A stretch of DNA of 63,106 bases, filler included, from Bonamia ostreae (Eukaryota): the NCBI GenBank assembly GCA_040357525.1. It is 45 parts of 45 records of this genome, joined end to end, with 100 filler letters (N's around TTAATTAATTAA, not from the genome) between each part and the next. Parts side by side here need not be neighbours in the genome. Positions count along the whole stretch, not along the records: positions 4,245 to 5,558 come from JBDODL010002068.1; positions 5,659 to 6,971 come from JBDODL010002069.1; positions 7,072 to 8,384 come from JBDODL010002070.1; positions 8,485 to 9,797 come from JBDODL010002071.1; positions 9,898 to 11,209 come from JBDODL010002072.1; positions 11,310 to 12,621 come from JBDODL010002073.1; positions 12,722 to 14,032 come from JBDODL010002074.1; positions 14,133 to 15,443 come from JBDODL010002075.1; 37 more parts are not named here. One strand, 5' to 3'. A program made the position numbers and the translations under genes. The notes under the pieces were generated by a model, which was not told the DNA's origin, searched no databases, and saw only the letters and a list, made by a program, of their open reading frames with translations. Numbering within the stretch: the first letter of the stretch is position 1; each line of letters opens with the position of its first letter. Below, piece by piece: positions 4,422 to 60,077 of the stretch.

Positions 4422-4998
4422 ATGACTTCTATAAACCACAAAACGAGATTTTACGATCTTCCACCCGTGATCCAAACCATCTTTAACAAATTCGACAATT
4501 TTGTCCAAAAACAAACTGAAACCCGAAAAGAAATCGACGCACTTTTGCAATCATCCGAAAACCAAAAAATCGACTACCAAAATCTCAAAAAAGTTACTTT
4601 CGAAAAGTTATTTCCAAAAAAAAGCGACTGGAAAAAGCAGAATCTCGAAGGCAAAAATCAGCCGCTCTTCTCAATGTCCTTTCAAACCAAGTAACAGAAA
4701 ACATAAAAGTGGCCTCGAACACATTGACAGAAGTGAACAGCATCGACCCCCAAATCGGCGCGGACAACAAATTTGACGAGTTTTAAAAAAACAAAAAAGC
4801 TTTTTCGAGCAAAAAATGAAATTTTACGAAGAAGAAATTTTGAAGATAAAAAAGCTTTTGAGCGAAAAAGAGAAATTTGGATCGTTTCCCGAAGTTCTGA
4901 CGGCGAAAGATTTGGCGCGGATTTTAAAAATGCACAAGGAATCCACAAACGCACTCGAAAGTTCAGTCGAAGCAATGAAACTCAAAATAAAATTTTAA
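4422..4998 (+). CDS. Nup58/Nup49-like coiled-coil nucleoporin (protist), 3 exons
   Basis: Removing introns 4593-4624 (32 nt) and 4780-4799 (20 nt) gives TRFYDLPPVIQTIFNKFDNFVQKQ...DFFEQKMKFYEEEILKIKKLL...LTAKDLARILKMHKES, which resembles the Nup58/Nup49 helical region. Confidence 0.55.
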
Positions 4999-7900
4999 TC
5001 ATTTTTTCCTTTTTTTGTACAAATTTTTGAGCTCTTCTTCGAGATTTCTTATTTTATTTCTTTTTTCTGTTTGTTCTTTGCGATCGATAAAATTTTCTTT
5101 TTTGCCGTTTTTCTGTTGTTGGTTTTTGAATTTCTGCTTTGTTTTCCATACTTTGCCGCTTTTCTTGGTGATTGCAAAGCTTGGGATTTTGTTGATCTGT
5201 TTTTTCGTTTCGATTTTGACCGATTTGTTGTTTTTGGCGATTTCGTCGCGTCTTTTCCGTTTCGATGCACTTGACCTCAGACTTCTTTTGTGCCGCTTAA
5301 ACGTTAAATTTTAAAACCATTTTTTGGATTATATTAATAGATATTATAAGTCCGCAATTTTCAGTCAAAAAGATTTGATCAAATTTCGTTTTTCGTTTCG
5401 TCTTTTCTTCGTTTTCGAAGATATGTCGCTTTTGCATTTTAAGATAAGATTTAATGAAGTTAGTTCTGATACAAATATTGAAATGATAAAATATTTTTAG
5501 TTAATGGCGCCAAATAGTTGCTCGATCAAAATATTATTGTATCTTCTGATTAATTTTCNNNNNNNNNNNNNNNNNNNNNNNNNNNNNNNNNNNNNNNNNN
5601 NNTTAATTAATTAANNNNNNNNNNNNNNNNNNNNNNNNNNNNNNNNNNNNNNNNNNNNGGATATATTAAATTGACATATGAATGATGACAGCGACTATTA
5701 AGTATCCAATTTCAAAATAAGGTCAAATCATTCTGCGATTATAAGTTTTGTTATTGTTGCGGATGCTGCGAGGGTTGCATACAGTTGTAACGCGAGTGAA
5801 ATATTGGTGTATTAGATGTTTATCGAAGATCTTGCTCTCATATCGGAGCATCAAAACTGTAATTGAAGAATCTAAGAATACTCCTCCAGGTCGTAGTGAT
5901 GATGATTTTCTAACATATCAATGCCTCCCTTGACATGGGCGGTTAATTTTTAGAGTTTCGCTCAAAAAACGTTCGCTTTTGGTGTCAAGGGCTTAGCGAA
6001 GCAGTTGTAACCTATTTCATACGTCTTGGGATTGAGACAATCTCAGAGCATCGAACATGGAATCTTGTAGTTCGTGCAGAGTGTTTTGATAACTACGCTG
6101 CCGAGACTGATAAAATCATGGAATAAATGTATGAATTGTTTGTATCATGGGATACCTGAGTGATTCAATATGGCGGGATAATGTGGACGTACTTATTCTT
6201 CCAATTTAGGAACCGGATTCAGGAGTGAATGCATATGGCTTCGCGAAAACTTCAAACCGAGGAGGTTTGTTTCCAAACATCACGAAGTGGTCTTTGTTTT
6301 GGGTAAAAAAGAGAAAATATGGTGGAAGGCAAAAACAAACAAAATGGAATGAAAAGAAAAACGGGAAAGATCCAAAATCCGTAAGTAAAAGTGAATGTAC
6401 AATGTAGTGGCGACAACAATAGTAGTTGTAACAGTTCCTGTATAATCTGAGTAGTACTCTGATCTCGTGTAATTCAATGATGTATAGCGATGTATTGATA
6501 GATCTGTGTCGAGGTACAAGTACCTCTCCGCCTGTATGTGAAACAAAAGTCTAAAATGAATGAAAATACTGCAGTATATGGATAGTAAAAACCCGCTGGT
6601 ATTTTTCCCTGGTATCAAAGGTTTTCTCTGGGTACACCAATGAATGACACGTATCGGTGTTATTTTCTGTTACTTTACTATGGTTACTGTAATTACATCG
6701 ATCTTTATGTCTTGTGTTGTTTGTTGATCACTCTCCAATTTGTTATTTTCGTTCTCTGTATTTTGAGTGAGATTATTTTCGGACAACCTTTGTTTTTTGC
6801 CGGGTTTTTATTCAGCAAATGGATAGCAGTTATCTTCTTTGCTACCACTTTGGTGTGATGTTCTTTGTCTTTCTTCCCGTATAATTTCATGTTAGATTTT
6901 AAATGGCATTTGTGATAAGGTGAGCTATGCATTGTTCTTGCAGAACGTTATATAAGACACTTAGGTGCATANNNNNNNNNNNNNNNNNNNNNNNNNNNNN
7001 NNNNNNNNNNNNNNNTTAATTAATTAANNNNNNNNNNNNNNNNNNNNNNNNNNNNNNNNNNNNNNNNNNNNTAACTCTAATAAATTGAAATAAATACAGA
7101 GATGATAATGCGGGTATGGATTTACCATAAATGAAAAAAAAATCATAATAAAATATAATGTGTATATACTTAAAGATAAAAATGATATAACATTGTTTTG
7201 CGCATTCTATTCCAGCAAAGATTTTCATTATCTTTCTAGTTACCCACGCAATTTCAATTTAGGGTCCCAAAATCTTAAGACTAAAATCAATAGATGATAT
7301 CGCATATTTAAACAGTTGATATTACCAACTGAACACGTGATATTAATTACTCGAATAGGTGACATATATGCATAACAGATAGCCTGGTGAAATAATACCA
7401 CATTTACATTATACTACATCAGAACAAAGCATGCAGGCACGTGCACCCTAGTATATACATTTGATACCACACAAAATCACTTGAATTGTAAAGATAAGTT
7501 CGACATGTCTATAAGAAGGTTTGTCAAGTATCATGTTCTGTAATAACGTTCAGATTCTAAACAAAAGAATGCGCCGAGGAAATTTTGTGTTACTAAGACC
7601 AATTTGACAACTTTGTCAAGGCTACTTTTCATAATCCTTACACAAAGGAATTTACATGATATGAGGTTCAGACTTTGAAAAACAAATCACTCAACATTTC
7701 TAATTCAAGTACTCCTATGTAGGTCAGGTGACCGTCCGTTCTCACTGGCTCCTTTGTTTACTTATGGCTGCCACTGAGTAGTTTCCTACATTTGAGATAA
7801 AATCTAACAATACGAATATCATGATAACATTACTTTTTTGGTAGGTTATAATATTTTAGTGCGAATTGCTTATCTTTTTACAATGTCATAAAAGTGATAT

Positions 7901-8484
7901 TCTTAGTTTTTGTGAAGCCCGTGGGTCGTGTAGCTTTTAGTATCTCTATCTCCTGAATTTATGCTATTTGAAACTGAATTTTCATCCGAAAATAGATGAG
8001 CTGAAACTGTACAGATANNNNNNNNNNTTTCAGAGGTGGCTGGTCGCTAATGCATAGCGTAAAGCCACCAAAGGAAGTGCTTGGGTTTAGGAAATCAATA
8101 TATCAGACTACAACATACTTTGATTGCTAGTATTTTTCTGCAATATATCGATTGTATCAAGATTTAACCGAGTTAGTAATGTCTGTAAGGATATATTTTT
8201 AAAGTATCAAGTTCAAGCCAGTATTTAAATCGCACTGAAGTTATCAGTCAACGGAGTTTTAATATAGATTATGCCTTTCTGATTTTCTCTGATGTATCAT
8301 TGTAATAGGAATATGAATATATAACCTTCAAACAAACATCAACATGCACTGCATATCGTTAAACTTTCAATTTTTCTGCAGCAGNNNNNNNNNNNNNNNN
8401 NNNNNNNNNNNNNNNNNNNNNNNNNNNNTTAATTAATTAANNNNNNNNNNNNNNNNNNNNNNNNNNNNNNNNNNNNNNNNNNNN

Positions 8485-58826: not shown

Positions 58827-59124
58827 CTAAATGATTTTTTTTTAAATTTTTATTATTTTAATAAAGCGCTCATTAAAGTAAAATATTTCGAAAAGTTTGC
58901 ACATTTTATTATTTTAAAAAAGCGCNNNNNNNNNNNNNNNNNNNNNNNNNNNNNNNNNNNNNNNNNNNNTTAATTAATTAANNNNNNNNNNNNNNNNNNN
59001 NNNNNNNNNNNNNNNNNNNNNNNNNATATTCAACATTTCTCAAAACAAAAATGCCAATTTTCTAAAAGCAAAAATTGTCAAAATAAAATTTCAATTTTTC
59101 GAATATTCAACATTTGAAAAACAG

Positions 59125-60077
59125 AACAAATTCGACAAAAGCCTTTCGCTTGAAAACCCGCGAGCCTTTTATTGCGCGGAACACAACAACATCGGCTACT
59201 ACAACAAAAACGAAATTCGTTTAATCGAGGACAACATCAGGGAAGGCGACATTCCAACAAACATCTTCGACAAAATTTTCAAAGTAGGACATTTCCATAT
59301 ATCAAAATAACTTTAAACAGACATTTCCATTATATTATTTTGCTTATAAACAATCACAAAAAACCGCCATTGAAAACTAATATTTAGCAAATCAAAAACG
59401 ACATCAGATTCGACCTCTTCCCGCGATTTCTCGAAAGCGACTTTTACAAGAACTACATCCGCTACAAAAGCCTCGAGAGCCAATCGATTGGCTCTCGAGA
59501 CTTCACACGGCTCACCGCCATCGGCTACGGCGCTTACGGGATCGTCAGCGTCGCACACAAAAGAGACTCCGGCAAAGCTTACGCCATTAAGTGCTTCAAC
59601 AAAAAACAAGTCGTGGCCAACGACGAGGCTCGTTCTGTGCTGGAAGAGAAGAAGTTGTTGGCGATGATGGACTCGCGCTTCGTCACGTCGCTCCGGTATT
59701 CGTATTGCGACAAAGACGACATCTGTCTGGTGCTCGACCTGATGCCGTGCGGCGACTTGAAGCAGCTGCTGACGCGCCACAGCACTTTTTCAGAGGAACT
59801 GTCCCGCTTCTACGCGGCGGAGATTTTGTTGGGGCTGGAACACATCCACTCGCGCGGGATAATCTACCGCGACATAAAACTGGAAAACATTTTGCTGGAC
59901 GAACTCGGGCACATCAAGATATCGGATTTTGGTCTGTCGGTGCGGAAGAAGGAAATGAAAAGTTACGCGGGGACGCCGGGGTACACCGCCCCGGAAGTTG
60001 TGCGAGGCGAATATTACAAGAAAACCGCCGATTTTTTCAGTTTCGGTGTCATTATTTACCGCTTTATGTCTGGGATG
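59125..60077 (+). CDS. RGS-domain + AGC kinase, G protein-coupled receptor kinase-like, partial (protist)
   Basis: IFDKIFK|QIKNDIRFDLFPRFLESDFY (end of RGS domain) followed by GYGAYG, YAIK, LVLDLMPCGDL, RFYAAEILLGLEHIH, YRDIKLEN, SDFG, GTPGYTAPE. Intron 59284-59387. Confidence 0.82.

Follow-up and report, generated by a model that had tools for sequence, protein, structure and literature searches.

How short an intron can the spliceosome of a protist parasite remove? The question is raised by a stretch of Bonamia ostreae DNA of 63,106 nucleotides (the window; all positions count along it), in which a first-pass annotation, made from the sequence alone, had placed 26 GT-AG introns, 14 of them, those given by position, being 19 to 22 nt long. 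We find that the observation holds, with firm independent support for 7 of these 14 segments. The segments stand in the DNA with GT-AG borders, the two covered by RNA contigs are missing from RNA, and removal rebuilds conserved reading frames in this species. At ~20 nt they are close to the shortest introns known, and they are very probably ordinary spliceosomal introns of the GT-AG kind, reduced to about the minimum that the B. ostreae spliceosome can still remove.

The window has a G+C content of 31% and carries masked blocks of 44 Ns, in pairs, about every 1400 nt. Three of its proteins are 100% identical to GenBank entries: the kinase open reading frame (ORF) at 59388-60086 to 'Beta-adrenergic receptor kinase 2, partial [Bonamia ostreae]' (MES1922031.1), the holocytochrome c synthase (HCCS) ORF to 'MHBO_003536 [Bonamia ostreae]' (MES1922018.1/MES1922016.1), and the transporter ORF to 'MHBO_003547 [Bonamia ostreae]' (MES1922030.1). 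The guess that the DNA belongs to an oyster-associated rhizarian parasite was therefore right and, judging by these proteins, the window comes from the nuclear genome of the haplosporidian B. ostreae.

Two of the tiny introns are missing from RNA

RNA contigs were compared with the DNA along one stretch of ~1300 nt (47865-49160, chosen for the ribosomal protein gene RPS29), which includes 2 of the 14 tiny introns. The contigs came from two sequencing runs, X1, which is RNA by the guess of the tool, and X2, an RNA-Seq run labelled mollusc metagenome. A 266-nt X1 contig (record 7; the only X1 contig there; depth 4250/4250) omits exactly the 19-nt segment at 49097-49115 and also skips the 55-nt GT..AG segment at 48927-48981. 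A further X1 joint in the same unnamed gene removes 81 nt; its shorter side is 21 nt, and it is flagged 'between: not known'. At RPS29, two loose ends of X1, at 48239 and 48261, continue into the sequence that lies across the 20-nt segment, one of them with a single mismatch. X2 gives no cover over the tiny introns, its single contig ending at 48239. That contig, which has poly(A) at its end, fuses 48139 to 48003, a skip of 135 nt with CT..AC borders on the plus strand (GT..AG when read on the minus strand). Absence from mature RNA is direct for 49097-49115 and indicated by loose ends for 48239-48258, and it extends to the three longer introns of 55, 81, and 135 nt, so that the RNA evidence in this stretch concerns five introns within two genes.

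The second, 135-nt intron of RPS29 (gene at 47969-48341, minus strand) precedes the last five codons, and the first codons of the intron itself would read VLT, three residues that the next exon encodes as well.

Removal of the tiny introns rebuilds conserved proteins

The coordinates, strands, lengths, and GT-AG ends given by the first-pass annotation were borne out by a sequence check for all 14 segments. Each begins with GT and ends with AG on its strand; nine are 20 nt long, one is 19 nt, one is 21 nt, and three are 22 nt; and for each one phase exists in which removal fuses two open frames. Firm independent support was found for 7 of the 14 (those starting at 24642, 48239, 49097, 51615, 51798, 57785, and 58347) and partial support for one (52733-52752). 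The 25 exon pieces that flank the 14 segments were scanned with Pfam, and 11 of them were without any Pfam family at E values up to 1. An Rfam scan of the whole window gave 0 matches. The conserved frames that removal rebuilds are those of RPS29, HCCS, an SDF-family amino-acid transporter, and a Rab11-like gene (Table 1).

In RPS29, the junction codon TG/T (a slash marks the splice junction here and below) rebuilds a Cys of CxxC, and exon 2 matches positions 19-52 of PF00253.

The HCCS piece upstream of 24642-24661 matches positions 77-267 of the 299 in PF01265. Among the non-self HCCS homologues, 26 of 28 align as far as 24662-24668 in one frame and resume from 24608-24668 in the shifted frame (frame -1), and in several homologues the query residues are contiguous across the 20-nt segment. 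Removal of the second, 32-nt HCCS intron rebuilds the conserved C terminus DR/VWMAYKRRKNG, where homologues have DRVKLAYRAWKNG. GenBank holds three products for this locus (MHBO_003536; 24471-25186, minus strand). MES1922016.1 is the conserved form and uses the 20-nt and 32-nt introns. The second product uses an acceptor 4 nt downstream, which gives a 24-nt intron that stays in frame; because that acceptor was chosen, this isoform ends in an unconserved tail. The third retains the intron. These products suggest that splicing of the tiny intron is imprecise or incomplete, or else that the annotation is noisy. The first-pass annotation had named retention of the segments in transcripts as an outcome that would count against introns; both 49097-49115 and 48239-48258 are skipped in RNA contigs.

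Two of the tiny introns lie in the SDF transporter, where Pfam places SDF profile positions 73-205, 217-262, and 276-370 on three consecutive pieces. MES1922030.1 maps exactly to the exons parted by the introns at 58347-58366 (20 nt), 58130-58198 (69 nt), and 57785-57804 (20 nt). Homologue P0258 is contiguous over 58347-58366, with its residues 239 and 243 flanking the intron. The intron at 57785-57804 splits the motif DR..T/..NV.G, and the junction DRLIT/TLNVIGG matches DRIITMTNVCGD in P0258.

The whole Rab11-like gene is readable, from the ATG at 51345 through introns of 32, 57, 21, and 22 nt. Pfam places Ras profile positions 29-51, 53-103, and 107-148 on the three consecutive pieces around 51615-51635 and 51798-51819. 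Intron 1 was placed with what we take to be the Rab11 consensus. The 21-nt intron is a multiple of three without an in-frame stop, so its retention would add 7 residues before WDTAGQ and cause no truncation. This gene (51345-51950, plus strand) has its four introns within less than 500 nt of coding sequence, and its first exon is 24 nt long.

The 20-nt intron at 52733-52752, in a P4-ATPase-like gene, is supported from its downstream side. The downstream piece matches PF13246 (P-type ATPase N domain, E = 3.8e-4), and 16 of its 19 matches in a PDB search, all of them weak, are phospholipid-transporting ATPases; a PDB search with the upstream piece found nothing. The upstream piece contains SSDEKALV, which we take to resemble the start of the N domain. 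The gene (52077-53346, plus strand) was read with what we presume to be the motifs of the family. Further introns are probable at 52587-52609 (23 nt, or a 17-nt alternative) and at 53215-53265 (51 nt, rebuilding TAIE/DRLQ); Pfam gave no relevant family on the further pieces of this gene.

The same gene shows two peculiarities. Its start appears to lie close to membrane segment four and the DKTGT motif (PMSLYVSLE...DKTGTLT), with no space for the N-terminal half ahead of it, the Rab11-like gene being upstream. At ~52894-52983 (plus strand), a junction between ...KDPRDGQ and ELKLYCKGAD lacks a GT donor, and the frame is kept by a single reading, ATATTTTT...AAAAG. The junction may reflect a non-canonical intron, a donor in which G has changed to A, or gene decay.

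The other candidate introns come from open frames. Pfam found no family in the pieces flanking 4780-4799. Two candidates flank the SP-RING exon of a PIAS-like gene; a homologue search with the exon downstream of 14551 returned only the window's own ORF. The exon downstream of 17543-17562 has no Met before codon 58; the piece downstream of 23592-23613, with weak WD40 matches (E = 0.004-0.04), has a frame without Met; and the piece downstream of 32779-32800 contains RRM_1 and has its first Met at codon 98, past the RRM. Downstream exons at 17543, 23592, and 32779 are without a usable start codon, and therefore an upstream exon is required.

The astacin-like gene that follows 17543-17562 (16905-17542, minus strand; PF01400, E = 0.002) has RELAH at the expected place of the zinc motif, which in astacins is HExxH. 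The gene may encode an inactive protease. A 155-nt intron with the donor GTTTTT is probable at 17244-17398.

Table 1. Introns and associated exon in the window, with the evidence for each
Position	Strand	Feature	Evidence or detail	Status
4780-4799	+	Candidate 20-nt intron, phase 2, unnamed coiled-coil-like gene	GTTTT..AAAG; fuses open frames of 86 and 65 codons	
14282-14301	+	Candidate 20-nt intron, phase 0, 5' of SP-RING exon, PIAS-like gene	Viterbi pick	
14302-14550	+	SP-RING / zf-MIZ exon	PF02891, E = 2.2e-11, profile 6-49 of 50	
14551-14570	+	Candidate 20-nt intron, phase 0, 3' of SP-RING exon	Contains CTAAC; picked by both Viterbi runs	
17543-17562	-	Candidate 20-nt intron, phase 0, astacin-like gene	GTAATC..TTAG	
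23592-23613	-	Candidate 22-nt intron, phase 2, WD40-like gene		
24533-24564	-	32-nt intron, phase 2, second HCCS intron	Not among the 14 listed; used by MES1922016.1	
24642-24661	-	20-nt intron, phase 0, HCCS	Homologues and MES1922016.1	Confirmed
32779-32800	+	Candidate 22-nt intron, phase 0, before RRM exon, eIF3b-like gene	Viterbi pick	
48004-48138	-	135-nt intron near 3' end of RPS29	X2 RNA-Seq contig	
48239-48258	-	20-nt intron, phase 2, ribosomal protein S29 (RPS29)	X1 loose ends, junction codon, PF00253	Confirmed
48739-48819	+	81-nt intron, unnamed gene starting near 48441	X1 joint 48738>48820, GT..AG	
48927-48981	+	55-nt intron, unnamed gene from ~48441	X1 joint 48926>48982, GT..AG, side 67 nt	
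49097-49115	+	19-nt intron, unnamed gene from ~48441	X1 contig	Confirmed
51369-51400	+	32-nt intron 1, Rab11-like gene	Follows MPSEYDYL	
51490-51546	+	57-nt intron 2, phase 2, Rab11-like gene	Fuses NEFSKEFK to TTIGVEF	
51615-51635	+	21-nt intron 3, phase 1, Rab11-like gene	Ras profile 29-51 then 53-103; rebuilds KAQ-I-WDTAGQ	Confirmed
51798-51819	+	22-nt intron 4, phase 1, Rab11-like gene	Ras profile 53-103 then 107-148	Confirmed
52733-52752	+	20-nt intron, phase 0, P4-ATPase-like gene	Downstream piece only	Partial support
57785-57804	-	20-nt intron, phase 0, SDF-family amino-acid transporter	MES1922030.1	Confirmed
58130-58198	-	69-nt intron, SDF transporter	MES1922030.1 mapping; SDF profile 217-262 then 276-370	
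58347-58366	-	20-nt intron, phase 1, SDF transporter	SDF profile 73-205 then 217-262; MES1922030.1	Confirmed
59284-59387	+	104-nt intron, GRK-like kinase	MES1922031.1 residues 1-53 = 59125-59283, remainder from 59388	
60078-60319	+	Start of long intron after kinase exon	Donor GTTTTGG; tandem-repeat filled	

Tiny and longer introns share their signals

The tiny introns have features in common that the GT-AG rule by which they were first picked did not demand. A GTT start is found in 13 of the 14, compared with a fraction of 0.348 among the 1140 GT..AG 19- to 22-mers in the window (binomial P = 1e-5), and a GTTT start in 10 of the 14 (P = 6e-6). The AT fraction of the interior is 0.82 versus 0.60 in the flanks and is the higher of the two in all 14 cases (Wilcoxon P = 5e-4). 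The GTT start also occurs in six of the seven segments without firm support.

Eight further introns were placed independently of the first-pass annotation, together with five probable ones, and the eight were tabulated with the 14 (n = 22). The lengths in nucleotides are 19, 20 (nine introns), 21, 22 (three introns), 32, 32, 55, 57, 69, 81, 104, and 135, with none below 19. Introns of 19 to 22 nt are the largest class in the window. The sharp 20-nt mode that had been described thus holds inside the window, where 14 of the 22 introns are 19 to 22 nt long and nine are exactly 20 nt, but it stands beside longer introns of 32 to 135 nt in the same genes. All 22 have the GT..AG ends of U2-type spliceosomal introns. 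T is found at +3 in 18 and at +4 in 16, the base at -3 is never G (22/22), and the AT fraction ranges from 0.55 to 0.90; no conservation was found in the 22 beyond the GTT(T) donor, the non-G at -3, and the AG. The consensus is equal in the tiny introns and in the long introns proven by RNA, of which those of 55 nt and 135 nt have GTTT donors and that of 81 nt has GTAT.

A gene finder based on codon usage (Viterbi, with a uniform prior on intron length) was run in two versions. The first tracked GC content on both strands. The second recovered 14282, 14551, 32779, and 4780, having been trained on exons next to these same introns, and missed those of the Rab11-like gene, RPS29, and the transporter. 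The Viterbi picks are weak support for introns.

Recognition of the tiny introns

If the tiny introns are ordinary spliceosomal introns near their minimum length, then they would be recognized across the entire intron at once (intron definition). The visible signals would be a weak GTT(T) donor, an AT-rich interior, and an (A/T/C)AG acceptor, and the interior would contain possible branch adenosines, situated a few bases before the acceptor. Introns of these genes that are 32 to 135 nt long or longer would be removed by the same machinery. Because tiny and longer introns share genes and signals, and because HCCS has 24-nt and retained variants, the 20-nt peak is best read as a pile-up, with a long tail, at a lower functional limit of 19-20 nt under deletion bias, rather than as the mark of a 20-nt ruler. 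Bonamia would then represent an unfinished stage of intron shrinkage. A lower-limit ('wall') model under deletion bias has been proposed for mikrocytids (PMC10245619).

An alternative is that a specialized, length-measuring spliceosome, reduced or altered, handles the ~20-nt introns as a class separate from the longer ones. Such a device would accord with the sharpness of the peak, nine of the 14 being exactly 20 nt and none of those listed 17, 18, or 23 nt, and the weak conservation beyond GTT..AG means that length could be informative. The mikrocytid relatives are also described as having a strongly reduced spliceosome together with 16- to 17-nt introns (PMC10245619). However, introns of 32, 55, 57, 69, 81, 104, and 135 nt with a common donor consensus occur in the same genes, so length is not fixed, and the HCCS variants, with an acceptor 4 nt downstream in one and the intron retained in the other, speak against precise measuring. 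The length-measuring spliceosome of the first-pass annotation is therefore not supported as it was put, and we consider this alternative unlikely.

It is very improbable that the segments are assembly indels or frameshifts in decaying genes. Six of them come from open frames only, and the P4-ATPase-like gene, with its junction without a GT donor and its seemingly missing N-terminal half, would fit decay. However, errors are not expected to be 19 to 22 nt long with GT..AG in 14 of 14 cases and GTT in 13 of 14, the segments are precisely missing from RNA contigs, and their hosts include RPS29, Rab11, and HCCS, the spliced products of which are well conserved. Excision at the DNA level, as of the internal eliminated sequences of ciliates, leaving an expressed genome without the segments, can be dismissed almost entirely: X1 is RNA only by a guess, but the borders are GT..AG rather than TA..TA, the X2 RNA-Seq contig with poly(A), from the same RPS29 transcript, leaves out a GT..AG segment, the GenBank models of the genome assembly treat the segments as introns, and we know of no nuclear dimorphism in haplosporidians.

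Several points weigh against reading the segments as ordinary introns at a lower size limit. Six of the 14 (4780, 14282, 14551, 17543, 23592, and 32779) depend on frame continuity plus the signature shared by the tiny introns. At two of these, an ATG lies early in the downstream exon, 5 codons in at 4780-4799 and 6 codons in at 14282-14301, and thus a model with no intron is possible there. The RNA nature of X1 is a guess of the tool. The sample is one 63-kb window with 22 introns, of which the tiny ones were pre-selected by the first-pass annotation, and introns whose length is a multiple of three and which lack a stop are easily missed, so that the length histogram is biased. In counts of segments that bridge open frames, GT..AG reached only 1.6 times expectation and ranked eighth among 256 dinucleotide pairs in the tight version. 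Four parts of the proposal are inferred, namely the role of the spliceosome, the branch site, the existence of a lower limit, and the deletion bias. The usual donor is GTAAGT, from which GTTT differs greatly, and this distance could mean that the recognition step is modified rather than ordinary.

The frame-bridging statistics were dropped as a test since they did not separate GT..AG from other dinucleotide pairs (at 20 nt, 24 bridging GT..AG segments were observed and 17 expected). The test is uninformative because open frames overlap in the stretches richer in GC and drown out the signal.

With shrinkage of ordinary introns toward a lower limit as the preferred explanation, it is quite possible, although we propose it only tentatively, that B. 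ostreae is a living intermediate in which about half of the introns of the genome are at the 19- to 20-nt limit and the rest are still shrinking, all with a degenerate GTTT donor that pairs poorly with standard U1.

Other features of the window

Alignments of kinase homologues end at 60074, at the edge of the exon that precedes the long intron starting at 60078, and a search with 10 of the 120 kinase homologues among the matches listed did not find the kinase exon beyond 60077. A minisatellite array (60112-60319) sits within this intron. Further arrays lie at 28228-28701, 28922-29258, 31101-31470, 26853-27108, and 49261-49434. A G/T-rich array of a 31-nt unit (15 copies) accounts for the GC skew of 0.39 at 27-30 kb.

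An ORF at 3157-3501 (plus strand) of this protist, itself an animal parasite, encodes an I-set immunoglobulin domain (PF07679, E = 1e-5). Also present are a DnaB-like helicase N-terminal domain (Twinkle-like; 18315-18953, minus strand), a Helicase_C piece (50605-50928, plus strand), and a mitochondrial carrier (120-815, minus strand). To judge from the predicted proteins, the helicases and the mitochondrial carrier, with HCCS, point to a working respiratory organelle.

Relation to other organisms with very short introns

The closest known parallel is found in the mikrocytids Mikrocytos mackini and Paramikrocytos canceri, in which 217 of 224 introns are reported to be 16 nt long and the others 17 nt, with a conserved sequence and a reduced spliceosome (PMC10245619). 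Like Bonamia, mikrocytids are Ascetosporea that parasitize marine invertebrates and have extremely short introns with a narrow size peak. Their splicing is imperfect, at 63% for 16-nt and 37% for 17-nt introns (PMC10245619), and on the Bonamia side imperfect splicing is represented by the alternative-acceptor and retained HCCS isoforms in GenBank. In contrast to mikrocytids, Bonamia has a 20-nt mode with a tail beyond 135 nt, and only GTT(T)..AG is common to its introns. Its tiny introns also lie in transporter, HCCS, Rab, and RPS29 genes, with up to four introns per small gene. Rather than being all 16-17 nt with one highly conserved sequence, the introns of the window range from 19 to 135 nt and more.

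Introns of 18-21 nt are known from the chlorarachniophyte nucleomorph (cited in PMC10245619), which resembles Bonamia in a nearly equal size range, an AT-rich genome, and many introns per gene. However, the nucleomorph is a relic algal nucleus with all of its introns at 18-21 nt, whereas the Bonamia introns are of mixed lengths and belong to the rhizarian's own nuclear genome. Heterotrich ciliates such as Stentor have introns of 15-16 nt (PMC10245619, PMC13644364). These are likewise GT-AG introns, sharply peaked in length and close to the physical minimum, but all introns of this free-living giant cell are of that size, and Bonamia also keeps longer ones. In myxobolid myxozoans and Dicyema the median intron is 22-27 nt (PMC13644364). 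These are also parasites, with a median in the low twenties, reduced splice-site motifs, and a modal rather than single-length distribution; they are animals, in which shrinkage was independent, and the likeness to Bonamia is one of description, not of sequence.

The B. ostreae genome paper mentions 'canonical introns' and gives the mean number of introns per mRNA in its Table 1 (PMC11069148). Intron lengths were not seen in its main text, and its supplementary files may hold them. A term search did not find the word 'intron' in the searchable text of the B. ostreae transcriptome paper (PMC9329632). More generally, the literature search, which covered main texts, turned up none that states how long the introns of Bonamia or of haplosporidians are. 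The caution of the first-pass annotation that its novelty might be partial was justified, given the 16- to 17-nt introns of mikrocytids (PMC10245619) and the 20-nt introns already held in GenBank models. Since the introns are in public gene models, the novelty lies in describing the pattern and the mixed length distribution.

Implications

Default aligners and gene finders often reject introns below 30-40 nt. The gene sets of this listed oyster pathogen, and comparisons of gene loss, hinge on the correct handling of 20-nt introns. For intron evolution, a 20-nt mode in a haplosporidian beside the 16- to 17-nt introns of mikrocytids indicates that extreme shrinkage extends further within Ascetosporea than one would gather from the main text of the open papers. 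For the mechanism of splicing, introns of 19-22 nt and 32-135 nt that share genes and signals allow splicing efficiency to be compared with length within a transcript, which bears on the minimum size of introns. If B. ostreae does prove to be a living intermediate, then it would offer a natural setting in which to measure what determines how short a spliceosomal intron can be, and it would show whether the 16-nt state of mikrocytids came from a Bonamia-like ancestor or arose independently.

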